Part shown: in pieces, positions 8,655 through 42,713 of the stretch
Layout: every line of letters begins with the position of its first letter
Position numbering within the stretch: position 1 is the first letter of the stretch
Source: a virus
Reading direction: 5' to 3' (one strand)
Virus genome (UHGV): UHGV-0026213
Length of the DNA stretch: 64,000 nucleotides
Made by a program: the position numbers and the translations under genes
The notes under the pieces: generated by a model
Database searches by the model: none
What the model was told of the DNA's origin: nothing
What the model saw: the letters and a program-made list of their open reading frames with translations, nothing else

Positions 8655-10838
8655 ATGCAGAGATTTAACATATTTCGTGATCAGAACATCGCGTTGGCGA
8701 AATCGCTGATTATTAAATCAGAATCAATCGCACAACAGATGAATCTGGCAATAACCGAGAACGGCGGTTTCGTTTCCGATAACCGTAGTACGTGGCGATA
8801 CTACCTGCATTTAGCAGGACAACGTCACGAAATGGATAAACCCATTTACATCACGTCGCTCGACACGCAAGAGCAGATAGAATTAACGACAGCCAACCTG
8901 TCCCGTCATAAAAAGACCTCTAACGTTTTTCGTTCGAATGTCGAGTATATCGTGGCGTTGATCGCAACTTATCCCGAATACGCGGTTTATATTCGCGGCG
9001 TCTTTACGCCAATCGATTTAAATTACGCGTTACGTGTAGACGATTGTTCTATTTTGTACTACGACAGTTCGTTAGTAGAATCACAAGAGACATCATTGAT
9101 TAGCCGACTGGAAGCGAGAATTCGTGCAGCCCACGTCCGGTACATGGCTGAGGGTTGGAAGGTCCACAACGATGCGTTTGTGTTAGCTTTCTACTGCATG
9201 TTGTTTCCGCAGCTACCGGGCATAATTGGTTATATTCGTTCTTCTTTACAGCATACGACAGAAACACACTCTTTCTTCGTTACCGAATTTTTAGCTTCGC
9301 ACCAGGAACTGCATGAGTTTATGCCGTACCTGACTCAGAAACAAAAATTCATTCTTTATCGAAATATTCGATACTGGGAACGCAATTCAGGGAAAGAGGA
9401 GATCTTCGATTGGCAAATCGATGCGCTACTGACAGGCTGGGGAATGCCTGCGGTTGGGTATAATGTTGCGCAGCAGATTCACGAACCGAAAGATGATGAC
9501 GATTCAACCTTAACACCGTTGCCTATCGGTTATCAGCAATCTTTAAACTACACAGAGAAAGACTCTGGACGCGATTTGGATATTGTTACCACTACGGACA
9601 TAATCCAAAAAGAGGTGGGGTTAGCGTATAACAACCCGGCGTACGAACCAGAGTACCAAGAAGACTTAGACACGCGACTGAGTCTGACACAATATCCTAA
9701 CTTAACGACGAAGCTCGTAGAAGTAACCGCCGTTGACCCAGAAGCTATTGAGCGTTTTGAATACACACATAACCTCTTTAATGAATGGGTACATTTGGTA
9801 GCGAAGGGAAAATACAACATCTACCACGAGATTCTTAACCCAACGAACGGCGATGCATTAAAGTTAAGTTCGAAAGAACTGTTGGCACTGTTTTTGTACG
9901 CGGCGTATAAAGGTTACTCCGATGTTGCCCTTGAAGAAATCCCCGTATTTAACGTTTTTGATGTGTTGATTAAACGTTGGGTGCCCTTCGATGAAATGGA
10001 ACAACATCTTATCCCGAGTTGGGAACACCGTTTCGATGCGCTGATTAACTACTACACCGACACCCACACCGAGGTAGTCGGGACCATTCTCAGTGCCGAC
10101 GAACTTTACGATACGATTAATGAAATTATCTTACAGAAGCGACGCCGTTGGCGTTACAGCCAAAACCGCCGTAAGATTCCCGATCGTGCTGCGGGCTTAA
10201 TGTTGTTCGATTACCATTATCGTGATTATCGCTGTGATTTAAAGTTAAAGTATCGTAACTATGACGAGTTCTTTAAGACCTTTGGGTTAGACTATACGTT
10301 GGTCTCTGCAGAGACGTGGCAAGATATTGCAGTCGATGCATTGAACACCGCAACAAACCTTGAAACGCGTGCAACCATTTCGCAATCTGAAATACAGCGC
10401 GCGATGGTTCGATTAATGACCACGCTTTCGTCGTATACCGTACATTTTGCTGCACGGATGGGGTCAGATTCTTACGACGTTATGGACCCGCTTTGTCCAA
10501 TCTTAGGGGATATCCCTATGAGTGGGGAGGGTACAGTTACCATCATTGAACCTCTCTTAGGCGTACAGTCAGTTACGCGACACCAATACATGACGACGGA
10601 CAAAGTGCTTCCCGCAGCGCCGGTGATTAAAGAGCTGTCCATGCCGCAACACATCAAACTACGGATGAACATTTACATGGGTATCCGTGTGAGAGTGAAT
10701 CAGCAAGTCGTGGTGGATATTAATGAACCGACCACCGGGGTTGTTAAGGTCAAGTCTTCACTTGACGACTGGGCGTTAAACGAACAGGTGAAAATTAACG
10801 ATCTCGAAGGGTTTACGTTAGACCAGCTACCTAAGTGA
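8655..10838 (+). CDS. hypothetical protein (about 728 aa)
   Basis: Track ORF starts at TTG 8643; ATG at 8655 in the same frame is preferred. Starts back-to-back with the divergent 905-aa gene. Confidence 0.75.
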   Translation: MQRFNIFRDQNIALAKSLIIKSESIAQQMNLAITENGGFVSDNRSTWRYYLHLAGQRHEMDKPIYITSLDTQEQIELTTANLSRHKKTSNVFRSNVEYIVALIATYPEYAVYIRGVFTPIDLNYALRVDDCSILYYDSSLVESQETSLISRLEARIRAAHVRYMAEGWKVHNDAFVLAFYCMLFPQLPGIIGYIRSSLQHTTETHSFFVTEFLASHQELHEFMPYLTQKQKFILYRNIRYWERNSGKEEIFDWQIDALLTGWGMPAVGYNVAQQIHEPKDDDDSTLTPLPIGYQQSLNYTEKDSGRDLDIVTTTDIIQKEVGLAYNNPAYEPEYQEDLDTRLSLTQYPNLTTKLVEVTAVDPEAIERFEYTHNLFNEWVHLVAKGKYNIYHEILNPTNGDALKLSSKELLALFLYAAYKGYSDVALEEIPVFNVFDVLIKRWVPFDEMEQHLIPSWEHRFDALINYYTDTHTEVVGTILSADELYDTINEIILQKRRRWRYSQNRRKIPDRAAGLMLFDYHYRDYRCDLKLKYRNYDEFFKTFGLDYTLVSAETWQDIAVDALNTATNLETRATISQSEIQRAMVRLMTTLSSYTVHFAARMGSDSYDVMDPLCPILGDIPMSGEGTVTIIEPLLGVQSVTRHQYMTTDKVLPAAPVIKELSMPQHIKLRMNIYMGIRVRVNQQVVVDINEPTTGVVKVKSSLDDWALNEQVKINDLEGFTLDQLPK

Positions 10839-31010: not shown

Positions 31011-31571
31011 GTGACTACTTACGTACCTGATTTAAGTCTGGCCTCAGCCGAATTAGTGGTCGCTTTAATCAACCACGATAACGGTTCACGGTTGTCTCTA
31101 AACGAAATCCGTATTAGCAACACTATGGCAAACCCGTCCCCGACCACTTCGCGTCGTAACACACTGACAGAGATTACAAAAATCAGGAAACCTGATGGTG
31201 CTTCTGTGGTTGTTTATTACGACCGTTTGGATGCGGACGAAGTGTTAGCGTCTGAACCTATTTTGATTTCGTTAGACGGTACTGAAGACAACCTTCGTGA
31301 CATTTTAGGTGTTGTAAATGAATTCTGCGGAACGAACTTACAACCCGAAGATTTACGTGCTGCAGATATCACCTTAGGTAACGAACCCATTGCTGTTAAC
31401 GTTGCTGACGATTCTCCTGCGTGGATGAATGCGTTTATGGTGACGTTATTCGATACAACAGAACGAGCATTAGCAAACGAAGATGATGCGATCTTCTGTA
31501 TTGGTGATGATGCCGTTCTTACCTTTGAGGTTCCAGATGACGACACAGCTGAAGAAAACCCGGCTACATGA
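31011..31571 (+). CDS. fibre-associated protein, paralogue of the 37776-38291 gene
   Basis: GTG start 6 nt after GGGAGG; shares TPDLSL...ALIN.D, IYYNRL, CG.NLQ.EDL and VLTF motifs with the 37776 gene; each precedes a fibre gene. Confidence 0.55.
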   Translation: MTTYVPDLSLASAELVVALINHDNGSRLSLNEIRISNTMANPSPTTSRRNTLTEITKIRKPDGASVVVYYDRLDADEVLASEPILISLDGTEDNLRDILGVVNEFCGTNLQPEDLRAADITLGNEPIAVNVADDSPAWMNAFMVTLFDTTERALANEDDAIFCIGDDAVLTFEVPDDDTAEENPAT

Positions 31572-31773
31572 ACTTGACCGTTTTACCGGTAATGGAGGCC
31601 AAAGCAAACTTTTATCAAAACTTAACAATCCCAAATCATGAAGCGCGGAGTTGGGCATCACTTTCACGTTAGAAGATGATGGATTAAAACCAGTATAATA
31701 ATCCGCTTATAAAAATGTTGAGGGGTAAAACACTTCCTCAGATCTTTTAGCTCCCGATAGAGAATTAAATATC

Positions 31774-34700
31774 ATGGCTAAAGCGGTAAAGAAAATTCGT
31801 TTACACGATTTACGTCCATACACCGGGGATATCGGTGAAGGCGTTTTACTTTTTTCGAAAGACGAAAGGGATTATCAGTTACCTGTCCGCGAGATTGTTG
31901 CGGATATTGACACCGTCAGAAACGCGGTTGCTGACGCACAAACGGCGGCGGCCAAATCGCAACAGTCTGCAACAGAAGCCACACAAGCAAAAGACTTAGC
32001 AGAAACAGCGAAGCAACAAACTGACACGTTAGCTTCCACAGTTAGCGAGCAAGCGGGAACCGTTGCCACTAAAACTGCCGAGGTTAGCAAAAAACACGCT
32101 GAAGTTTTAGCCGCGAAAACGGCCGTAGATACTGTATTACAATCGGTAAATGAGAAAGCTCAAGCTGTCGCCACAAGCGAACAATCGGTGACGGCTGCAG
32201 CGGCTGATGTAACTAAGAAAGCAGAAACGGTTACGCAACAGGCCGGACAAGTTCAACAGACGGCTACCGGTGTCGAGAATACTGCGGCTTCAGTTGAGGC
32301 CAGTAAGGGCGCAGTGGAGAAGATTGCTGCACAGGTCGCGAAAGATAAAGAAAGTTCAGAAGGCGCAGCAACACGTTCGGAGTCAGCTGCCTTACGTGCG
32401 GAGAAAATCGCTGCGCAGGGCTTAATCGACGCCAGTACGACCGGTAAAGGTATCGTTAAACTTAACGATACACTGACTAGCGAATCCGTGACTGAGGCCG
32501 CCACACCGTCCACGGTTAAACAGCTGAATGACGAATTACAGTTAAAAGCCAATAAACATTCGCCGAATTTTACGGGTAAACCGTCATCCCCAACACCCCC
32601 GAAGGACTCGAACGACACGAGCATCTCCACAACGGCCTGGGTGCGTGACGCGATTGCGGAACTGGTTGGTTCTTCACCCGAGACGTTAAATACCTTAGCG
32701 GAATTAGCTGAGGCGTTAGGTAATGACCCTAACTTCGCAACAACGATTACTGGGGAACTTGCGCAGAAACAACCTCTCAGTCCGTTGCTCACCGCCATTG
32801 CCGCAGTCACCACAGCGGCAAATAAACTCATGTATTTCACTGGCAGTAATAAAGTCCGATTAACGGATTTTACAGAAACGGCTAGATCCTTGTTAGCGAA
32901 AGGGTCAACTGCGGATATCATCAATTTCTTGGGATTAAGAACCACCGTAGATAAAGCGAATGGTGCGCTACAGAAAAACTCTAACGGCGCTGATATCCCA
33001 GATAAAGAAACTTTTGCTCGAAACATCGGCCTATCTCCTGATACCTATCTGCGTTTCCGTGGCGAAATGCCTGTAGATGCTGATATTAACACATTTGCTC
33101 CAGATGCCAATTACACAGGAACGTGGGCTAAGTCGACATCAACCAATGCGTCGATGGCAAAACACTTCCCAGAAGACGGTGCGGTCGGTTATCTGGAAGT
33201 GTATAAAGCCGGTAATTACAGCGGTGCGCAACGTTTTACCTGTCGTAATGGTAACGTGTACAACCGTATGTTGTCAGGTGCGTGGAATGGTGCCAATGGA
33301 CCCTGGTCGCCGTGGAGAATGGTAACTACTGGTGTACGTCCGTTATCTACCTCTATAGACTTGAACTCTCTGGGTGGCGCTGAGCATATGGGTAACTGGC
33401 GAAACTCAAGCAGTTCGCTGGCTGTGTTTAGCAGACATTACCCTGAAGAAGGTGGTGGTGCGCAAGGCGTACTAGAAGTAATGGAAGGTGGTCTTTTCGG
33501 ACGGTTGCAGCGATACACTACGCGTCGTGGTACAATGTATGTTCGTGGTTTGACTGCAACGTGGGATTCATCAAACCCACAATGGGAAGATTGGATTCAG
33601 GTTGGTTATCAGACTGACGGTGCTTTCTTTAAAGCCAATTTTAACGATCTCGTTAAACCGGGACGTTTCAGTGTCACTGGTGAAGCAACTAATGGCCCAC
33701 TTACCGGTTCTTCTGGTGAAACCATATTAGGTGTTTGTGAAGTTACCTTACGCTTAGACGGTACAGGGGTCGAACAGAATTATACTACATACGGTACGGG
33801 TGTAGAAACTAAAGGTCGTAAATTCCAACGTATCCGTACGGGTAACGCTTGGAGCGATTGGCGTGAGGTTTTCACATCGTATTCGCTTCCGCTGGTATTA
33901 GGTATCGGCGGTGAACGTGCGAATGTTGATCCTTTAGACTGGCAAACCTATGACTTTAAACCAGGTGAGTTAATCTGTACGCCGCTTAACACCATGAAAA
34001 ACATTCCTGCGGGAATGGATTGGGGTGTTATTGACGGTAACTTAGTTAGCATTCTGGTTGGTCCATCAGATGGCGCATCCTCAGCCCGGAGTATGTTGGT
34101 TTGGCGTAGTACGGTGTCTACTGCCAACTATCGATTCTTTGCAGTACGTATCGCTGGTGAGAAAGGTAGTCGTACGATTACGCCACGACAGATGCCTGTA
34201 TTGAATGCAGCACACACCTGGGCAGAAAAACAGACCTTTGCAAAAGGGTTAGCAGGCGAGTTAACAGGCAATGCTTCAACCGCAACGAAATTAAAGACCG
34301 CACGTAGAATTGGTGGAGTCGCTTTCGACGGTAGTGGTGATATTAACCTCCCGGGTGTTAACCAACAAGGTAATCAAAACACCACGGGTAATGCCGGTAC
34401 AGCCACTAAACTTCAAACTGCCAGAAATATTAACGGTGTGAGATTCGATGGTTCTGCTGACATCAATATCAACACCTTGGTGGGTCGTGGTCGGGTTACT
34501 GCACTAACCGGTTCAAACAAAGGTACGCCTGGTATTCAGATGTACGAAGTTTACAATAACGGTTATCCGACCGCTTATGGTAACTTGCTGCATTTGGGCG
34601 GTTCTACTGCGCTAGGTGAAGGTGAACTGTTAATCGGTTGGTCGGGCACGAGTGGTGCGCACGCACCCGTTTATATTCGTAGTCGACGCGATACAGCGGA

Positions 34701-36375
34701 TGCGCCGTGGTCAGATTGGGCACAAGTTTATACTGCCCGTGATAGTATTCCTGGTGTAAATACCACCGGTAATCAAGATACTACTGGTAACGCTGCTACC
34801 GCGACGAAACTGAAAACTGCTCGCAGAATCGGGGGCGTTACCTTTGACGGTACTGGGGATATCAATTTACCGGGGGTTAACCAGCAAGGTAACCAGAATA
34901 CGACAGGTAATGCAGCAACCGCCACTAAGTTACAAACACCACGTAAGATCGGTGGTGTTAACTTTGACGGTTCGCAAGACATTAGTCTGCCCGGTGTGAA
35001 CCAAACCGGTAACCAATCGACTACGGGGAATGCTGCGACTGCGACTAAGCTCCAGACTGCGCGAAATATAGGTGGCGTAGCTTTTGATGGTACCAAAGAC
35101 ATCAACTTACCTGGCGTAAACCAAACGGGTAATCAGTCGACCACCGGAAACGCGGCCACGGCAACGAAGTTGCAAACTGCAAGGACCATCAACGGTGTTC
35201 CGTTTGATGGCACTAAAAACATCGAAATAACGGCTGAAAGTTTAAACCTTGGGCAAACTGTAGAATTGGCCGGTGGGTCATTGCAGAAGAAACAGAACGG
35301 TGCCGATATTCCAGATAAAAGGAAATTCTTACGAAATGTTGGTGCCCCGAACACAACAACCATATCTTTTAATGGTGGTGCCGGATGGTTCAAACTGGCA
35401 ACTGTAACGATGCCACAAGCCAGTTCCGTGGTTTACATAAGCCTGATTGGTGGTGCAGGGTTTAACGTTGGTTCCCCGCATCAAGCAGGTATCTCTGAGC
35501 TGGTTCTGCGTGCAGGAAATGGGAATCCAAAAGGTATTACTGGTGCGTTATGGCGACTGACCTCAGTCGGCTTCACTAATTTTGCATGGGTGAATACATC
35601 TGGTGACACTTACGATATTTATGTTGAAATAGGTAATTACGCCACCGGTGTTAATATTCAGTGGGACTACACTAGTAATGCCAACGTAACGATTCACACA
35701 TCGCCAAGTTATACGGCTAATAAACCCGCAGGACTAACAGACGGTACCGTCTATCTGATTTACAGCACACACAACAAACCTAACGCTGGTGACGTCGGTG
35801 CGTTACCGTCAGGGGGCGGTACTATAGGTGGCGATTTAACCGTTAACGGTAAATTGGTCACTAAGTACCCTGATTTTCGAATCGCTTACGGCAACTACGG
35901 CTTTATGTTACGTAACGATGGTGCCAATACCTATTTCTTAGTAACCGACGCCGGACAAGCTGCAACGGGTTCCTGGAACGGACTACGTCCGTTGTATTTT
36001 AATAACGCTAACGGCCAAGTAACCTTTGGTCATAACGTTACTGGCAGCGGTAACGGTTCGTTTAACGACGTACAGATTCGTTCTGACCGTCGTAACAAAC
36101 GTAATCTGGTGAAACTGGATAAAGCTTTGGATCGGTTAGAGTTACTAACCGGTTATTTGTACGAAATTCAGCATCCGGATGACGGTTGGCAAACCTCTGT
36201 AGGTCTAATTGCTCAAGACGCATTAGAAGCGTTACCTGAACTTGTGTCTGAGGATGATGATGCCATTTCAGGCGAAAAACGTTTACGTCTAAACTACAAT
36301 GGCGTTATTGCGCTGTTAGTAGAGGGTATGAAAGCGTTGCGTCAAGAGGTTAACGAAATTAAAGGAAGATCCTAA
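31774..36375 (+). CDS. long tail fibre protein with tandem fibre repeats and C-terminal intramolecular chaperone (peptidase S74-like) domain
   Basis: 1533 aa; Ala/Thr/Gln-rich N-terminal shaft; at least six copies of TTGNAATATKLQTAR.I.GV.FDG..DINLPGVNQ; C-terminus SDRRNKRNLVKLDKALDRLELLTGYLYE... resembles the auto-cleaving chaperone of endosialidase and T5 L-shaped fibre. Confidence 0.85.
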   Translation: MAKAVKKIRLHDLRPYTGDIGEGVLLFSKDERDYQLPVREIVADIDTVRNAVADAQTAAAKSQQSATEATQAKDLAETAKQQTDTLASTVSEQAGTVATKTAEVSKKHAEVLAAKTAVDTVLQSVNEKAQAVATSEQSVTAAAADVTKKAETVTQQAGQVQQTATGVENTAASVEASKGAVEKIAAQVAKDKESSEGAATRSESAALRAEKIAAQGLIDASTTGKGIVKLNDTLTSESVTEAATPSTVKQLNDELQLKANKHSPNFTGKPSSPTPPKDSNDTSISTTAWVRDAIAELVGSSPETLNTLAELAEALGNDPNFATTITGELAQKQPLSPLLTAIAAVTTAANKLMYFTGSNKVRLTDFTETARSLLAKGSTADIINFLGLRTTVDKANGALQKNSNGADIPDKETFARNIGLSPDTYLRFRGEMPVDADINTFAPDANYTGTWAKSTSTNASMAKHFPEDGAVGYLEVYKAGNYSGAQRFTCRNGNVYNRMLSGAWNGANGPWSPWRMVTTGVRPLSTSIDLNSLGGAEHMGNWRNSSSSLAVFSRHYPEEGGGAQGVLEVMEGGLFGRLQRYTTRRGTMYVRGLTATWDSSNPQWEDWIQVGYQTDGAFFKANFNDLVKPGRFSVTGEATNGPLTGSSGETILGVCEVTLRLDGTGVEQNYTTYGTGVETKGRKFQRIRTGNAWSDWREVFTSYSLPLVLGIGGERANVDPLDWQTYDFKPGELICTPLNTMKNIPAGMDWGVIDGNLVSILVGPSDGASSARSMLVWRSTVSTANYRFFAVRIAGEKGSRTITPRQMPVLNAAHTWAEKQTFAKGLAGELTGNASTATKLKTARRIGGVAFDGSGDINLPGVNQQGNQNTTGNAGTATKLQTARNINGVRFDGSADININTLVGRGRVTALTGSNKGTPGIQMYEVYNNGYPTAYGNLLHLGGSTALGEGELLIGWSGTSGAHAPVYIRSRRDTADAPWSDWAQVYTARDSIPGVNTTGNQDTTGNAATATKLKTARRIGGVTFDGTGDINLPGVNQQGNQNTTGNAATATKLQTPRKIGGVNFDGSQDISLPGVNQTGNQSTTGNAATATKLQTARNIGGVAFDGTKDINLPGVNQTGNQSTTGNAATATKLQTARTINGVPFDGTKNIEITAESLNLGQTVELAGGSLQKKQNGADIPDKRKFLRNVGAPNTTTISFNGGAGWFKLATVTMPQASSVVYISLIGGAGFNVGSPHQAGISELVLRAGNGNPKGITGALWRLTSVGFTNFAWVNTSGDTYDIYVEIGNYATGVNIQWDYTSNANVTIHTSPSYTANKPAGLTDGTVYLIYSTHNKPNAGDVGALPSGGGTIGGDLTVNGKLVTKYPDFRIAYGNYGFMLRNDGANTYFLVTDAGQAATGSWNGLRPLYFNNANGQVTFGHNVTGSGNGSFNDVQIRSDRRNKRNLVKLDKALDRLELLTGYLYEIQHPDDGWQTSVGLIAQDALEALPELVSEDDDAISGEKRLRLNYNGVIALLVEGMKALRQEVNEIKGRS
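34268..35235 (+). repeat. tandem ~33-codon tail-fibre repeats (Phage_fiber_2-like), codon-diversified
   Basis: Repeated NTTGNAATATKLQTAR...FDG..DINLPGVNQ units in two blocks; amino-acid identity is high but synonymous codons differ between copies. Confidence 0.75.
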
Positions 36376-37157
36376 TGGCAGTTGTCGGCGTAGGTGGTTG
36401 GATTGGTTCTTCAGCAAAAGCTGAAGCTGGTAACGAATGGATGTCTGGCGCGATGCGCACACTTGGTGTGCCGGTTCCAGGCTGGATGTCGCAATTGGCG
36501 GGAAAATCAAAAGAGGTCCATTATTCTATTGGTGCTAACCATAGCTATAATAAGGATACTCTTATTAACTATTTACGTTCTTTAGGCTCTACTGCTGTCG
36601 TTGTGACCATTACAGGGGATTTAGTGTCTTATAGTAGCGGGGTTCCTTGTTTAGAATTCCCTAGCAATCTTCCAAATTCGTATATTACACTCATCATCAA
36701 TCCTGGGGTTACAGTATACGGCAGAGGAGGCAACGGCGGTTCTAACTCACCAGGCGGTGCAGGTGGAACCGCAATACAGAACGGAATAGGAAACAGACTG
36801 CGTATAACCAACCGTGGCGCTATTGCCGGAGGCGGTGGCGGCGGTGGCGGCGGTAACAGGGGTAGACTAATATTTGGTGGTGGCGGTGGTCGCCCATTCG
36901 GTGCTGGTGGGTCTTCCTCTCATATGAGTTCCGGTGCGGCTGCTGGTACTATTTCCGCTCCTGGTAAAGGATCTGTTGGTGAGGGGTCTCTTAGTGCATA
37001 TACAGGCGGTTCGGGTGGTAATGTCGGTGCTGCTGGAGGAAGATGTAATACTCATGGTAACGGTACAGAATATAACGGCGGAGCAGCTGGTGCAGCTGTT
37101 ACTGGTAATGCGCCAAGATGGGACGCAGTAGGTGCAATATACGGTTCACGTGTTTAA
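36375..37157 (+). CDS. glycine-rich protein, possible receptor-binding adhesin (T-even gp38-like)
   Basis: 260 aa with poly-Gly tracts (GGGGGGGGGNRG, FGGGGGRPFGAGG); start overlaps the fibre stop; N-terminus conserved with the next gene. Confidence 0.5.
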   Translation: MAVVGVGGWIGSSAKAEAGNEWMSGAMRTLGVPVPGWMSQLAGKSKEVHYSIGANHSYNKDTLINYLRSLGSTAVVVTITGDLVSYSSGVPCLEFPSNLPNSYITLIINPGVTVYGRGGNGGSNSPGGAGGTAIQNGIGNRLRITNRGAIAGGGGGGGGGNRGRLIFGGGGGRPFGAGGSSSHMSSGAAAGTISAPGKGSVGEGSLSAYTGGSGGNVGAAGGRCNTHGNGTEYNGGAAGAAVTGNAPRWDAVGAIYGSRV

Positions 37158-37173
37158 TTAAAAAAGAGGGTAG

Positions 37174-37677
37174 ATGGGGGTAGCGTCAGGATGGGTCGGT
37201 TCTTCGGCCAAGAACGAAACGGGCGAACAATGGATGAGCGCTGCGGGTAGTAAATTAGGATTGGGTAGACCTTTTATGATGAGCCAAATGGTGGGACGAT
37301 CTATGGGCTGTAAAATTGCAACTGCTGCATATAGCGATTCTTTAGGTAAGAAATGGGGAGCAGTAGGGCCAAGTTGGCCGTTAAACCAGAAAAATCAGGG
37401 GACCATTCAAAACGCGGGTAACTGCGGGGTGGGAACTTTAGTAGGTATTGAGTTACAGTTAACGACGATAGTTGCCAACGCAAAGCCTACTTTAGCGGTT
37501 TACTTACAAGGAGGCAGAGCCTCTAACATTACCGTAAATTTAGGTGGCAACACCTGCGCGCTGACCTATCAGCAGGTTATTAACGGACAGCATTATTACT
37601 GGACTAATAACATCAGCGCTGCGTTCCAAAACGTGATGAAATCGACAGGCGCACTACGTGATTTGAGAATTAGCTAA
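37174..37677 (+). CDS. paralogue of the Gly-rich adhesin-like protein
   Basis: N-terminus MGVASGWVGSSAKNETGEQWMSAAG parallels MAVVGVGGWIGSSAKAEAGNEWMSGAM of the preceding gene. Confidence 0.5.
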   Translation: MGVASGWVGSSAKNETGEQWMSAAGSKLGLGRPFMMSQMVGRSMGCKIATAAYSDSLGKKWGAVGPSWPLNQKNQGTIQNAGNCGVGTLVGIELQLTTIVANAKPTLAVYLQGGRASNITVNLGGNTCALTYQQVINGQHYYWTNNISAAFQNVMKSTGALRDLRIS

Positions 37678-37711
37678 TTATTTTCAAGTCATAGTGCTTG
37701 AAAACATAATC

Positions 37712-37721
37712 GGGGGGGGGG
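37712..37721. repeat. homopolymeric G10 tract (intergenic)
   Basis: Ten consecutive G, 55 nt upstream of the ATG at 37776, between TTGAAA (37698-37703) and a TGAAAT -10-like hexamer. Confidence 0.9.
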
Positions 37722-37775
37722 TGAAATGCTTTAGCCAACATTTTATGACTCCCCTAACCGTTGGAGGTAAACTTT

Positions 37776-38291
37776 ATGGGGCAATTCACACCAGATTTAT
37801 CATTAACTTCAACTAACATGGTTATATCGCTGATCAACTACGACCTTCAGCTCGATCTGCAAGAAAACGAGGTTGAGTTCAGCAACGTAAATCCTACTGA
37901 AGAAATGAATCGTGATACCACTGCCGTTGTAAAGATTAAGCGTCCTGGAAACAGAACGTTGCAGATCTATTACAACCGTTTAACCGCAGAGCGGTGGTTA
38001 AACCAGCAACCTATTCTGGTAAAAGTAATCGGGGAAGGGTTTACCACACACGATTTAATCGAAGCGATTAACGCAGCTTGTGGCAGTAACTTACAAGCTG
38101 AAGATCTAACAGATAATTCATTTACTGTAGGAAAAGACGCGGTAACGTTGCAGGTATCGCCTAGTTCACTAGGTTATAAAGGTCAATTCTCTGTTCTGGT
38201 TTTCGGTAACGGTGAAGAAGCCGCAGTAACAAAAGACGACGATTTAATCGTTACCGCAGATAATCGTGTATTAACTTTCGGAGATCATTAA
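37776..38291 (+). CDS. fibre-associated protein, paralogue of the 31011-31571 gene
   Basis: ATG after GGAGG; conserved motifs with the 31011 gene; precedes the second fibre/tailspike gene. Confidence 0.55.
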   Translation: MGQFTPDLSLTSTNMVISLINYDLQLDLQENEVEFSNVNPTEEMNRDTTAVVKIKRPGNRTLQIYYNRLTAERWLNQQPILVKVIGEGFTTHDLIEAINAACGSNLQAEDLTDNSFTVGKDAVTLQVSPSSLGYKGQFSVLVFGNGEEAAVTKDDDLIVTADNRVLTFGDH

Positions 38292-38305
38292 TGGCTAAAA
38301 CTTAA

Positions 38306-38575
38306 GTGGCGTTGGTATTTTTTACATCGATAACAATCTATCCGCAAATACTCTACTTATCTGAAAGTAACGAATTACTGGACGTTAAATATTACGTTGC
38401 GGATGCTTCCACAAAAGCATCGGTGGTAATGTTGACTATCTTGGTAACAATGTCTAAAGTCCATGGTGTTACTATTGATATCAACAATCTCGATGAAGTC
38501 CCTATTACGGAAGAACAAACCCCGGTTAAATTTATCGTTGGTACTGCCTTATCACAGAACGGCATGTCGCGCTAA
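38306..38575 (+). CDS. small hypothetical ORF
   Basis: 89-aa ORF from a GTG start with no clear RBS; may be shorter or spurious. Confidence 0.3.
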   Translation: MALVFFTSITIYPQILYLSESNELLDVKYYVADASTKASVVMLTILVTMSKVHGVTIDINNLDEVPITEEQTPVKFIVGTALSQNGMSR

Positions 38576-38610
38576 CCGGAAGAGCATTGGTTTAAAAATT
38601 GGAGGTTACA

Positions 38611-38748
38611 ATGGTTCAACCAATTGGAAAGAAACGTATCCATGAACTCGACAATTTCTCTGGCGATCTCAAAGGTGCGGTAGTTCTCCTTTCTAAGGAA
38701 GAAAAAGAATATAAAATTGATATTGCAGAACTTCAAGGGGGGGGGTGA
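38611..38748 (+). CDS. N-terminal virion-anchor segment of the tailspike, in a different frame from the esterase body
   Basis: ATG 5 nt after GGAGG; encodes MVQPIGKKRIHELDNFSGDLKGAVVLLSKEEKEYKIDIAELQGGG, homologous to the first 45 aa of the 31774 fibre; frame ends at TGA just after the G9 tract. Confidence 0.5.
   Translation: MVQPIGKKRIHELDNFSGDLKGAVVLLSKEEKEYKIDIAELQGGG
38737..38745. repeat. homopolymeric G9 tract at the tailspike frame junction
   Basis: Nine consecutive G; one extra G would fuse the upstream anchor frame to the esterase frame. Confidence 0.9.
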
Positions 38749-40736
38749 CGGAACCGGATTATTACTTCGTGATCCCTATAGCCGGGCAATCTAATGCGAT
38801 GAGTTATGGTGAAGGATTGCCTCTACCAGCGACGTTGGACGCTCCCGATCCGCGGATTAAACAGATGGCACGCCGTACGAAGGTAACGCCTAATGGAGCT
38901 GATTGTAAGTATAACGACGTCATTCCAGCGGATCACTGTCTGCACGACGTGCAAGATATGTCCGTATTCTCGCATCCCAATGCCAATTTGGACAAAGGTG
39001 AATACGGATGTGTGGGTCAAGGTCTACACATCGCGAAGCGTCTTCTCCCGTATATTCCTAGCAACGCTGGTATCTTACTAGTACCCTGCGCACGCGGTGG
39101 TTCTGCTTTTACAGGTGGTGCAGAAGGTACCTTCGATGACGCCACAGGAGCCTCTGCGGCGTCATCGGTATGGGGGGTGGAAAAACCGCTTTATAAAGAT
39201 TTAGTTAGCCGGACCAAAAAAGCTCTGGAGGTTAATCCTAAAAATAAACTCCTGGCTGTAGTGTGGATGCAGGGAGAGTATGATCTGACTAAAGTAGGTT
39301 ACGCACAACAACCAGCGCTATTTAACGCTATGGTAGAGCGTTTCCGAACTGATCTCTCTGACCATCTCCCTCAGATGCCCGAGTACGACACCGCCGAAGT
39401 ACCATGGATCTGCGGGGACACTACCTACTATTGGAAGGAAAAATATCCTGCTCAATATGAAACCATATACGGTAATTATCGTAACAATGAACAAAAAAAT
39501 ATCTTTTTTGTTCCATTCATGTACGACGATAATGGCCAACGTGTACCGACTAATGATCCCACTGACGATCCTGATATCGCCGCTGCTGCTTACTACGGTG
39601 CTGCCTCCCGTAGTAATAAAAACTGGACGTCTGAAACAAGGAATAGCCATTTCAGTTCTTGGGCTCGACGCGGTATTATCTCAGAGAGAATAGCTGCTGA
39701 GATATTATCAAGAACAGCGATTGGTGCAATGCTCATGACGAAGAACGACACTAAAGAGCTCAAAGACAATATGAATGTGGTAAGAAGCTATACCCCATTA
39801 GTAGAGTCTGTGGGTTATAACGGACGTCGTGGAGATGGTTCCCTGAAAGGGCAAGGTTGGAACAATACCATTGATTGTAACGTAACCGTGCAAAAATCTG
39901 AGGATGGAAATGGACATTTCGTCGAATTAAGAAAGGCTGTAAGTAACAAACCTTGGAATGTAACCAGGTCAATGGCAACAGCTGCAGACATGATACGTTA
40001 CGGTGGACGTCTGACCGTTACTTTTAGACTAAAAGGTGATTTAGCAGCAAATCGTTTCGGGTTAGGACTTTATTGGCGTATCTCCGCGTCCGACCTACCT
40101 TCTGGTACTACACTTGCTGACGCTAGTGTGGCTGATACGAACCCGTACCTAATGTCTTTTTTCTTACAGACCGACGCTACGAATCTTTATCTGATGCATC
40201 ATAAAAAGCAGAATGTGCAATTAGGAACTTTCGGTGCGTACGATAATAACTGGCATACGCTTGAAATCATTTATCCGGGTGACAATAAAATCAAAGTCAC
40301 GCCTGTGCTTGACGGCAAGAATGGCACTCCATTTGATCTGGCGAACAGTACAGCTAAGACCAATTTGAACGAATTGGTTCTGACAGATATTACGAAAGTT
40401 ATTGCCTACGATATCGATATTTCGAAGTTTGAGATCTCGGTCAATCGTGATTCTGGTAGTATAGTGTTATCTGAGGAAGATGTATCGTCTTATGTGTATT
40501 TCCCAGCCACCAACCGTGGCGGCCAACTTACTATTCCTGATCTAGAATATAGCGTGGGTAGAAATATTCAGATCGTGGCAAATAAGGCTGGTTCGATCAC
40601 CGTTAAACCGGAAAATTCAAACGTTCTCATCACTCCAAAGAGTGGGACGGAAGGTCTTGCCAAACCCATTGAGACCAATGAAAGTATTACGCTAATGCAA
40701 GTTGGCTCCGATGGTAAAAGCTGGGTAGTTATTTAA
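38745..40736 (+). CDS. tailspike/fibre body with SGNH-type esterase (sialate O-acetylesterase-like) domain
   Basis: 663-aa ORF; N-terminal YFVIPIAGQSNAMSYG carries the GQSN nucleophile motif of SASA/SGNH esterases; lacks its own anchor domain in frame. Confidence 0.7.
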   Translation: MTEPDYYFVIPIAGQSNAMSYGEGLPLPATLDAPDPRIKQMARRTKVTPNGADCKYNDVIPADHCLHDVQDMSVFSHPNANLDKGEYGCVGQGLHIAKRLLPYIPSNAGILLVPCARGGSAFTGGAEGTFDDATGASAASSVWGVEKPLYKDLVSRTKKALEVNPKNKLLAVVWMQGEYDLTKVGYAQQPALFNAMVERFRTDLSDHLPQMPEYDTAEVPWICGDTTYYWKEKYPAQYETIYGNYRNNEQKNIFFVPFMYDDNGQRVPTNDPTDDPDIAAAAYYGAASRSNKNWTSETRNSHFSSWARRGIISERIAAEILSRTAIGAMLMTKNDTKELKDNMNVVRSYTPLVESVGYNGRRGDGSLKGQGWNNTIDCNVTVQKSEDGNGHFVELRKAVSNKPWNVTRSMATAADMIRYGGRLTVTFRLKGDLAANRFGLGLYWRISASDLPSGTTLADASVADTNPYLMSFFLQTDATNLYLMHHKKQNVQLGTFGAYDNNWHTLEIIYPGDNKIKVTPVLDGKNGTPFDLANSTAKTNLNELVLTDITKVIAYDIDISKFEISVNRDSGSIVLSEEDVSSYVYFPATNRGGQLTIPDLEYSVGRNIQIVANKAGSITVKPENSNVLITPKSGTEGLAKPIETNESITLMQVGSDGKSWVVI

Positions 40737-40742
40737 TTTAAA

Positions 40743-40786
40743 CCGTAGGATGGACTAAGTCCATCCTACGGTTTTTATATTTTTTC
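40743..40786 (+). terminator. rho-independent terminator
   Basis: CCGTAGGATGG-ACTAAG-TCCATCCTACGG hairpin followed by TTTTTATATTTTTT. Confidence 0.85.
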
Positions 40787-40830
40787 TCAGATATATATTA
40801 CCTAGGAGAGAGTGAAATTTACATTCACTC
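40781..40830 (+). promoter_or_regulatory. conserved promoter-like block plus inverted repeat
   Basis: TTTTTCTCAGATATATATTACCTAGGAGAGAG then GAGTGAA...TTCACTC; same block as at 20841 and 44998. Confidence 0.4.
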
Positions 40831-40859
40831 CATTAGTTATAGCCGAAAAGGAGGATTAG

Positions 40860-41711
40860 ATGTCACACCCGTATTATCTCCCGCACATTCTAGCAAATAG
40901 GGACCCTGGTTATTACTACGAACAAACAAAGGGATTTGTTGAACGACTTTATATTCGTGAATTTAATACCGATGAAATGACTGATGGCCAGTATCTAGAG
41001 TATCTAAAAGACCTTTACGCTTTTTCAAAATCGAATAAAGGTGGGTTTGGACGTTACTCGGTCATTAGAGATGATGAATATCGTCATTTAGCTAAGCCTG
41101 TTACGTACCCTATTGTTACACGCGCTTATACATCGGATAGGCAATATAAAGCTGAGCTAAAATTTCCTTTACGGATAGACGGACCTCAAATTAGCGCTAT
41201 AGAAGTAGAAATTCAACCAATTGCTGAAGACTATATTAGAGACTACTTCAAGAAAGCTAAAGACGTACTCGACGAGGGTTTAAGTTACTCTGAAGAAGGT
41301 ACGATTTGTCTTCTCTCGTTGCTCTCGAAGACTTATGTCACGGCAAATTTCCGTGTCTCTGATTCCAGTAACTACAATACACTTACTCCCTCTAAGACAA
41401 AACCGGTTTATTGGGACGATCGGTTAGTCGACAGACAACGCTGGCTTACTATCTTAGATAAAGTAAAATTCGAACCCCCTAAACACACCGAAGACAACTT
41501 TATTTTATTGGACGACTTCGAACCGATCTATATCCCGACACATTTTGAACAAGCCTTACGTCATCGGTTGAAATATGTGTTGGAATTACGGTACGGAAAG
41601 ATAAACGGACTAACCTGTTCTGGTGAATTGGGAGAAGAAGAACGCGAGAAAATAAAAATCGTGTTTGATGAGTTGGTTGAAGATTACATTAAGAAGGAAG
41701 GGCAATTATGA
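40860..41711 (+). CDS. hypothetical protein (283 aa)
   Basis: ATG after AAAGGAGG; downstream of the conserved promoter block. Confidence 0.6.
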   Translation: MSHPYYLPHILANRDPGYYYEQTKGFVERLYIREFNTDEMTDGQYLEYLKDLYAFSKSNKGGFGRYSVIRDDEYRHLAKPVTYPIVTRAYTSDRQYKAELKFPLRIDGPQISAIEVEIQPIAEDYIRDYFKKAKDVLDEGLSYSEEGTICLLSLLSKTYVTANFRVSDSSNYNTLTPSKTKPVYWDDRLVDRQRWLTILDKVKFEPPKHTEDNFILLDDFEPIYIPTHFEQALRHRLKYVLELRYGKINGLTCSGELGEEEREKIKIVFDELVEDYIKKEGQL

Positions 41712-42197: not shown

Positions 42198-42713
42198 ATG
42201 TCAGTAAATATTAACATGAATCTTTATACTAAACGTGAACGTCAGATTCTGGCGAATCAACCCGGTGTTACGACTATCGACGGTAAACCTATTGACCGTT
42301 TAAAAGTTATCGTTGCGCGAAATTGTCATGAACGCGATTGGGACATTACCTACTTCCGTTGTTGTTCGGTCGCAAATGCGCTTACTCAACTCTCTAACTA
42401 CCACTCAGGACCGCTATTAAAAGACTGGGTTTGGTTAGTGCCTAGAACACCCTCAGCAATTGAGTATCCTTCTGGGTTAGTTTATATTCGTCCTGTCGCT
42501 TACCCAGAGCGTCTGAAAGAGTATCTTGAAGTTATCTGGAACCGTCCTCGTAAAGAGCTGGTGACGATTATTAATTTACTGCAGCAGATCGAAATCCCTG
42601 GTGTTTTGAATTTGAAACTCACGTCTCGCGATATTAACCAGGCTTACTGGGAACTAGAGTGGACTGAACCGAAATTCGAAAACAGTAACCGCATTTTCTT
42701 GCATCGGGGGTAA
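42198..42713 (+). CDS. hypothetical protein (171 aa)
   Basis: ATG after AAAGGAG. Confidence 0.55.
   Translation: MSVNINMNLYTKRERQILANQPGVTTIDGKPIDRLKVIVARNCHERDWDITYFRCCSVANALTQLSNYHSGPLLKDWVWLVPRTPSAIEYPSGLVYIRPVAYPERLKEYLEVIWNRPRKELVTIINLLQQIEIPGVLNLKLTSRDINQAYWELEWTEPKFENSNRIFLHRG

Follow-up and report, generated by a model that had tools for sequence, protein, structure and literature searches.

The virus genome UHGV-0026213 was analyzed over a stretch of 64,000 nucleotides (hereafter, the window), in which a gene for an esterase of fiber type, on the plus strand at positions 38611–40736, is divided into two open reading frames (ORFs) at a run of nine G residues. ORF1 begins with the ATG at 38611, 5 nt downstream of a Shine-Dalgarno sequence, GGAGG (38601–38605), that can be read directly in the sequence, and comprises 45 codons (38611–38748). 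Its TGA stop codon (38746–38748) arises from the frame set by the G9 run (38737–38745) and overlaps the start of ORF2 as GTGA, the GTG of ORF2 being formed with the last G of the run at 38745; from there, ORF2 continues for 663 codons to 40736 in the −1 frame relative to ORF1. A preliminary description, made from the sequence alone, had already drawn attention to the run, the stop codon directly after it, the 45-amino acid (aa) ORF and the GTG-started body, and all of these were read back in the sequence. A census of G runs in the window counted 90 of length 4, 13 of length 5 and 2 of length 6, beyond which there is a single G9 and a single G10. With only about 0.09 runs of at least nine G or C residues expected under a first-order model, the G9 run is not attributable to chance. 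It is also the sole homopolymer of at least 8 nt within a coding region of the 64 kb; apart from the G10, the remaining runs of this length consist of A or T and are intergenic.

The two ORFs are the parts of a single ancestral gene. A search with the conceptual fusion of ORF1 and ORF2 retrieved proteins of 706 aa (P0001, P0002 and P0003) with 88–92% identity and 100% query cover, which are uninterrupted and have a junction without the tract (CAGGGCGTG; ELQG(V/T)TEPEYYF in the protein). At the DNA level, the junction reads CTTCAGGGCGTGACG in these tract-less relatives and CTTCAAGGGGGGGGGTGACG in the window, which thus carries a net 5 nt more than the intact gene, and the segment 38611–38736 hardly differs from the 5′ start of the uninterrupted genes for the 706-aa proteins. 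The product that had been predicted to result from one extra G, ...AELQGGGVTEPDYYF..., was found verbatim in other samples as a protein of 708 aa (P0123). Moreover, the cluster formed around ORF2 of the window at 90% identity includes members of 708 aa with a QGGGVT junction and of 707 aa with a QGGVT junction, so that the closest homologues are unbroken, at 706–708 aa, over the whole of the conceptual fusion.

Comparison of public assemblies, which the preliminary description had proposed as a check, revealed that the length of the tract is polymorphic among very closely related genomes. The shortest allele, G7, is in frame and encodes a protein of 707 aa (P0128; ERZ27246429). G9, which splits the gene into ORFs of 45 and 663 aa, is represented by the window itself (ERZ27287186) and by ERR7738532, ERR2368357, ERR2367902 and ERZ15610544, amounting to 4–5 datasets. 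G10 is again in frame, with a product of 708 aa (P0123), and was identified in seven sequencing runs (SRR29980933, SRR29980956, SRR29980979, SRR29981030, SRR29981075, ERR2368306 and ERR14760479; L010–L016) and, by a scan of Joint Genome Institute (JGI) metagenomes, in CYGL01000001.1 (L027). In G11, the gene is split once more, with an ORF1 of 61 aa (P0149; ERR14760501 and ERR2368003). One further scaffold, ERZ28628744, ends inside the run after 10 G. The allelic series belongs to the window's own “MVQ” lineage.

The flanks of the tract were compared over up to 3 kb, with the tract itself masked. One G9 contig (L021) shows 0 differences in 1529 flanking positions from the G10 haplotype shared by L013, L015 and L016, L015 and L021 coming from the same study series; another G9 contig (L023) differs at 1 of 938 positions from a G11 contig (L024) and, likewise, at 1 of 938 from the window. 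Overall, three haplotypes carry G9, at least three carry G10 and two carry G11, and these haplotypes are otherwise 1–4% apart. The recurrence of the same lengths on several haplotypes, together with the near-identity of the flanks, indicates that tract length does not follow genealogy and has changed repeatedly and recently.

Across nine haplotypes (three tract-less, one G7, two G10, one G9 and two G11), the body of the gene is maintained at 662 codons without an indel or a stop, and the pairwise ratio of nonsynonymous to synonymous substitution rates (dN/dS) in the body is 0.2–0.5, including comparisons of two out-of-frame alleles. Hence, the body is under purifying selection in all haplotypes compared, and the open frame combined with these dN/dS values argues against old pseudogenes. 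Two controls were available nearby. A G6 run at 39172, 435 bp downstream, is G6 in every covering contig that retains the pure run, and no other gene is split relative to its counterparts in the 22 kb surrounding the tract. In addition, G9 is given by three assemblers (MEGAHIT, SPAdes and Logan), and the same pipelines give G7, G10 or G11 elsewhere on identical flanks. The locus displays three of the features that define contingency loci, namely, a long run within a coding sequence, variation of its length among near-identical genomes, and toggling of the frame of an intact, selected ORF.

The protein encoded downstream of the tract is predicted to consist of three domains. A NanS-type SGNH/SASA catalytic esterase domain with a GQSN motif (38745–39707) matches the structure of Escherichia coli NanS (PDB 3pt5; E = 1e-121, residues 45–366 of the conceptual fusion) and Pfam SASA (PF03629; E = 1e-11), and the G-Q-S-N residues are identical in all 27 homologues aligned. 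It is followed by a NanS-p-type jelly-roll, lectin-like domain (39813–40445) that matches PDB 6yp6, a NanS-p structure (E = 3e-36, fused residues 402–612), and Pfam DUF6645 (PF20350; E = 2e-31). The C-terminal domain of about 95 aa (40446–40736, including the stop codon) lies outside the matches to the NanS-p PHROG and to the PDB structures; in an AlphaFold2 model built from the 27-sequence alignment, it consists of beta strands, with a predicted local distance difference test score (pLDDT) of 61–85, and it is kept in homologues from Salmonella prophages (93% query cover). The body is about 51% identical, over 85% of its length, to the NanS-p genes of Shiga toxin (Stx) phages. On these matches, ORF2 is assigned to the NanS/NanS-p-type family of sialate O-acetylesterases with a lectin domain; its substrate could be 9-O-acetyl sialic acid or, equally, an O-acetylated capsule or O-antigen. 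The enzyme had earlier been described as an SGNH-esterase tailspike. Membership in the SGNH superfamily holds, whereas the architecture is not that of a classical tailspike: no trimeric beta-helix body was detected, the PDB matches and the AlphaFold2 model giving an alpha/beta SGNH fold with beta-sandwich domains.

Among 120 homologues, the start of the body is always (T/S)EPEYYFVIPVAGQSN, and the N-terminal modules preceding it are highly diverse, including DUF1737, lambda-type tail-fiber domains (PF08400) with a coiled coil, as in P0006, whose N-terminus is of the lambda tail-fiber type, and many linkers rich in Pro, Ser and Gly. The NanS-p homologue of phage phi24B, gp84, is a structural protein that decorates the capsid, to which it is bound via its N-terminal DUF1737 domain (bioRxiv 10.64898/2026.04.10.717836). 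Taken together, the exchangeable N-terminal modules and the display of phi24B gp84 suggest that enzymes of this family are virion-displayed cargo with exchangeable handles. The homology to NanS begins at fused residue 45, directly after the run, which places the tract in the linker between the two. Judging from this position, the linker would be tolerant, such that extra glycine codons are harmless and out-of-frame lengths uncouple the handle from the cargo. As a separate observation, many homologues from Salmonella prophages (P0013, P0017, P0024, P0051, P0100 and others) have just 30–40 aa before the conserved EPEYYFV, next to relatives with modules of 80–130 aa; the genes in question might have been truncated or split independently.

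The 5′ part of the gene (38611–38736) encodes an N-terminal, fiber-type anchor of about 41 aa plus a glutamine. The preliminary description had noted that this anchor is shared with the large fiber at 31774, and similarity searches bear this out: ORF1 aligns with the N-terminus of the 1533-aa long fiber (31774–31896, plus strand) with a BLASTP E value of 3e-10, 14 of 41 residues being identical and 29 of 41 positive, and is also about 50% identical to the N-termini of small proteins annotated as “tail fiber protein” in SPN3US, Asesino and relatives. A hidden Markov model (HMM) constructed from five such N-termini and searched against the six-frame translation of the window recovered three sites only, at 38611 (E = 4e-28), 31774 (E = 6e-27) and 31537 (E = 7e-7). 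The third of these (31537–31641) is a truncated copy of the anchor (MTTQLKKTRLHELDRFTGNGG..., a 34-aa ORF) that overlaps the end of the first of two DUF7941 genes, where the small tail-fiber gene is located in SPN3US, and looks like a relic of fiber-gene replacement. Neither the anchor nor the N-terminal 200 aa of the large fiber matched a Pfam family. In NanS-p proteins, the corresponding position is occupied by the capsid-binding DUF1737 domain, and this identity was considered for the 45-aa ORF since tblastn alignments to Stx phages began at query residue 18; it was rejected given that Pfam gave no DUF1737 match and that the NanS match begins only at residue 45, with the fiber-type module in its place. 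By homology and gene order, we infer that the 41-aa module is a putative virion-attachment handle.

The gene order around the tract supports this assignment. The split gene is preceded by a gene for a DUF7941 protein of 171 aa (37776–38291, plus strand; Pfam PF25613, E = 1e-16), a putative virion or adaptor protein that matches PHROG 2935, “virion structural protein” (E = 7e-26), and for which the start annotated in L008 was used. Its paralogue (30966/31011–31571) precedes the large fiber, and SPN3US gp144 lies at the same position; both anchor genes adjoin a preceding DUF7941 gene, and the order in SPN3US is identical. The second DUF7941 gene, the anchor ORF and the esterase ORF accordingly look like a second, accessory fiber unit, of which the DUF7941 gene would be the first, and which is closed, directly 3′ of the esterase gene, by a very strong, intrinsic-terminator-like hairpin with a 16-bp stem and a T-rich tail (40740–40784, plus strand). 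Between the DUF7941 gene and the anchor ORF lies an insertion of about 320 bp (38292–38610) that is missing from the tract-less relatives (L003–L007), in which the esterase gene begins 4 nt after DUF7941. The insertion contains an 89-aa ORF (38306–38575, plus strand; 89 or 75 aa across haplotypes) that has no Pfam match and weakly resembles the C-terminal end of phrog_33169 (E = 2e-4), and that is possibly the 3′ remnant of a displaced gene. That it might be the second half of DUF7941 was ruled out, the second DUF7941 protein being full-length, with an end that matches its homologues.

The G10 run of the window (37712–37721, plus strand) is intergenic, about 55 nt 5′ of the start of the second DUF7941 gene and 1 kb from the G9 tract. 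In relatives, the same block is a G-rich 10-nt segment that is interrupted (GGGGTGGGGG or GGGGGAGGGG), and it is G11 in L006 and L017. The run could represent a regulatory element, conserved but now prone to slippage, and a link to the G9 tract is uncertain. A scan of 37100–41000 for sigma-70 promoters yielded fewer matches than shuffled sequences, and given also that these phages use their own RNA polymerases, a role of the G10 as a promoter spacer was set aside.

Other homopolymers occur in the neighborhood. In the tract-less relatives, the spacer between two gp38_N genes contains a C run (C10 in L003, C9 in L004, L005 and L007), followed 15 nt later by a G7 or G6 run that also forms the ribosome-binding site of the next gene, both runs together lying at 8847–8878 in L003 and at equivalent sites in the others; the C run and the G run could pair, and length varies between contigs. 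An intergenic C run 5′ of a 171-aa gene (window counterpart, 42198–42713) is C9 in one contig and C6 in another (L017 at 7409 and L010 at 7410, respectively). In the window, next to the long fiber come a complete T-even-type gp38 adhesin gene (36375–37157) and then a gene consisting of the gp38 N-terminal domain only (PF21721; 37174–37677). Only in the gp38 segment does the DNA of the region exceed 80% similarity to T-even-like coliphages and to Yersinia phages.

The window comes from an uncultured SPN3US-like jumbo phage. Its large virion and RNA polymerase proteins match PHROGs of jumbo phages of the phiKZ/SPN3US type, and a virion protein of 905 aa has about 73% identity to its counterparts in Salmonella phage SPN3US and in the Erwinia phages phiEaH2 and Asesino. 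Over the 22 kb compared, the window matches the metagenomic contig ERZ27287186 k141_659670 of the European Nucleotide Archive (ENA; 224,967 bp, assembled with MEGAHIT) at 100%. Megablast searches of the locus and of the surrounding 24 kb against the INPHARED phages found no close relative, all matches being to the gp38 and fiber-tip segments, and scanning IMG/VR and the GTDB genomes for exact patterns gave no match. Related genomes of about 222 kb have been deposited as circular “plasmids” of E. coli 98232 (NZ_CP173450.1; L026) and Enterobacter ludwigii 51A:C (NZ_CP134650.1; L028), which suggests a carrier state or pseudolysogeny of related jumbo phages. Both retain the second DUF7941 gene and lack the esterase gene as well as the 283-aa gene found 3′ of it in the window (40860–41711); the absence of the esterase gene suggests that the cassette is accessory. 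The occurrence of these relatives in E. coli and E. ludwigii, together with one homologue recorded under Shigella sonnei, points to enterobacteria as the hosts.

We consider it probable that the linker joining anchor and enzyme contains a genuine homopolymer that is hypermutable, with ON and OFF alleles generated by slipped-strand mispairing, and that the window carries an OFF allele. Under this model, the main product of the unit would normally be one protein of about 707 aa, comprising the handle of about 41 aa, a glycine linker, the NanS-type O-acetylesterase, the NanS-p-type lectin domain and the C-terminal beta domain. In one sub-lineage, the linker codons would have become a pure G run, the length of which then would shift through slipped-strand mispairing during DNA replication. 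With G7 or G10, the frame would be kept and the esterase tethered (ON); with G9, as in the window, or G11, the frame would be broken (OFF), the anchor being made as a peptide of 45 or 61 aa and the esterase being, at best, anchorless. That the length changes are frequent and reversible within populations, that the enzyme is held on the tail by its N-terminal module and that the ON or OFF state alters adsorption or host range are further inferences, the second drawn from homology and gene order. The breaks of assemblies at G tracts are hints of length switching within populations.

Several observations weigh against this model. The tract lengths were taken from assembled contigs rather than from reads, so that any single assembly could be one G off; the window (L008) and L009 have the same sequence and might derive from a single sample; and several G9 contigs are short or of low coverage (2.3 in the case of L023). 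Among about 17 datasets with the tract, 7 have the gene out of frame, a share of roughly one half that fits neutral drift of a dispensable gene equally well, and the absence of the esterase gene from the jumbo phages of E. coli 98232 and E. ludwigii implies that it is non-essential. Finally, AlphaFold produced no confident model for the 41-aa module (pLDDT < 50), the attachment role of which is deduced from homology and gene order. A rival reading is that the tract was miscounted in sequencing or assembly, the true length being G10 (or G7) and the gene intact. Errors are frequent in long homopolymers, the public allele seen most often is G10 (8 datasets), some G9 contigs are short or thinly covered, and one scaffold breaks within the tract; nevertheless, G9 was recovered in 4–5 datasets by three assemblers, within a 225-kb contig in the case of MEGAHIT, and these pipelines report other lengths on identical flanks. 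Furthermore, the Logan contig of ERR7738532 passes through the G9 unbroken, though it ends exactly at the site of the intergenic G10, the nearby G6 is never mis-sized, and no other frameshift is found in the neighborhood, all of which makes a miscount unlikely. Dead-end decay, whereby the G run would be no more than a mutation-prone site in an accessory gene that the phage can do without and the G9 and G11 alleles would be pseudogenes heading for loss, is compatible with the existence of related phages that are wholly devoid of the gene, with the relic anchor at 31537–31641, which indicates that fiber genes do decay at this locus, and with an out-of-frame share that is near the neutral expectation. 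We nonetheless regard it as improbable, for three reasons: the OFF haplotypes all hold the selected, indel-free open body; OFF and ON alleles occur on identical flanks, so that the frameshifts must be very recent or reversible; and G7 and G10 differ by exactly one codon, suggesting selection for the frame.

The other alternatives would make use of the split as it stands. The split would be only apparent if the two frames were joined by programmed recoding, either through a −1 ribosomal frameshift on G GGG GGG ahead of the UGA or through slippage of the RNA polymerase, as the preliminary description had allowed for alongside mispairing of DNA strands. A −1 slip on the run would yield exactly the QGGGVT fusion. 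Slippage in the P site could be favored by a stop codon in the A site together with a G-rich, Shine-Dalgarno-like stretch, and long homopolymers also promote slippage of transcripts, which in this phage are made by RNA polymerases of its own. However, the tract is not conserved, sister lineages having GGGCG and a single ORF; the in-frame G7 and G10 alleles exist and G11 would require the opposite shift, leaving no fixed frame relation; and the RNA is plain, with folds downstream of and across the tract no better than those of shuffled sequences (z = −1.06 and −0.20). Nor, to our knowledge, is G GGG GGG among the efficient slippery heptamers of bacteria. Programmed recoding is therefore very unlikely, and the part of the earlier proposal that survives is the ON/OFF switch through length polymorphism in the DNA itself, as slipped-strand mispairing predicts; leaky slippage on the G run at the level of RNA or of the ribosome is possible. 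The chances appear slimmest for an arrangement in which the OFF state is itself a design for two proteins, with termination at the TGA and re-initiation at the GTG releasing a soluble esterase and a free anchor peptide. The GTGA overlap is present, the G run could serve as a weak Shine-Dalgarno-like element, and homologues with short N-termini exist in Salmonella prophages; against this, the spacing between such an element and the start codon would be only 0–4 nt, and the GTGA arrangement is missing in the G11 OFF allele, in which the stop of ORF1 lies 50 nt further on.

The model of a slippage-driven switch can be extended to an adaptive toggle, although we rate this extension as speculative and on balance unlikely. 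The G7 and G10 alleles would place the esterase on the tail, where it would deacetylate a host glycan during adsorption, and the G9 allele would provide free enzyme through restart at the GTGA, to be released at lysis, with the 45-aa handle left to occupy or vacate the docking site. The replication of jumbo phages by their own polymerase, plausibly beyond the reach of host mismatch repair, would make long homopolymers intrinsically unstable, so that each burst might contain both types of particle, as bet-hedging against phase variation of O-acetylation in the host.

The mechanism is a familiar one; what is new is the setting, along with the placement of the tract between two domains and the existence of alleles as a natural series. 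The best-documented parallel is that of the Campylobacter Fletchervirus phages, in which hypermutable polyG tracts are located in receptor-binding protein genes (Sorensen et al., Cell Rep 2021, as cited by PMC10579305 and by bioRxiv 10.1101/2025.10.21.683753). In those phages, tracts of 7–11 G in host-recognition genes toggle the frame by their length, and subpopulations differ in virion composition, much as proposed here. The Campylobacter phages, however, have many tracts, located inside the body of the receptor-binding protein, whereas the enterobacterial SPN3US-like jumbo phage has one coding tract, plus the intergenic G10, that falls exactly at the linker between anchor and enzyme of an esterase known from sequence alone. 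Homopolymer slippage causing reversible frameshifts, with a proposed role in bet-hedging, has also been described at contingency loci of T2, T4 and other coliphages, and the same work found homopolymer repeats to be under-represented in tail-fiber genes of the BASEL coliphages (Gomez, Barrick & Waters, bioRxiv 10.1101/2025.10.21.683753). Those loci mostly involve short runs (at least 6 nt) in agt, rIIA and other genes and were studied by experiment; here, the G run is much longer, it lies in a gene of fiber type, and the alleles form a natural series. With NanS-p and phi24B gp84 of Stx prophages (PDB 6yp6; NanS, PDB 3pt5), the protein shares the catalytic SASA/SGNH and lectin domains, but virion display in phi24B gp84 depends on the N-terminal DUF1737 module, in place of which there is an SPN3US-type fiber handle, along with the additional domain of about 95 aa at the C-terminus. 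For NanS-p, a homopolymer switch has not been reported. A further counterpart may be the esterase tailspike gp63.1 of the N4-like phage G7C, an SGNH-type deacetylase that is joined to the particle by an N-terminal adaptor and acts on a polysaccharide of the host surface; gp63.1 is not known to have a frameshift switch. In bacteria, poly-G contingency loci of Neisseria, Haemophilus and Campylobacter turn translation ON and OFF by slipped-strand mispairing, with consequences at the cell surface, whereas in a virus the consequence would be in the composition of the virion. In the literature searched, we found no report of a poly-G tract in a fiber gene of a jumbo phage.

For annotation, the ORFs of 45 and 663 aa are better labeled as one frameshifted or phase-variable gene, and, at the tract, the gene content of this group will seem to vary from one metagenome-assembled genome to the next. 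If the tract switches, poly-G control of virion composition, best documented in Campylobacter phages, would extend to an enterobacterial jumbo phage, and the gene would be an exception to the depletion of homopolymers in coliphage tail-fiber genes. The allelic series of G7, G9, G10 and G11 would then provide a test bed for the role of a virion-displayed NanS-type esterase and for the stability of homopolymers in jumbo phage replication.

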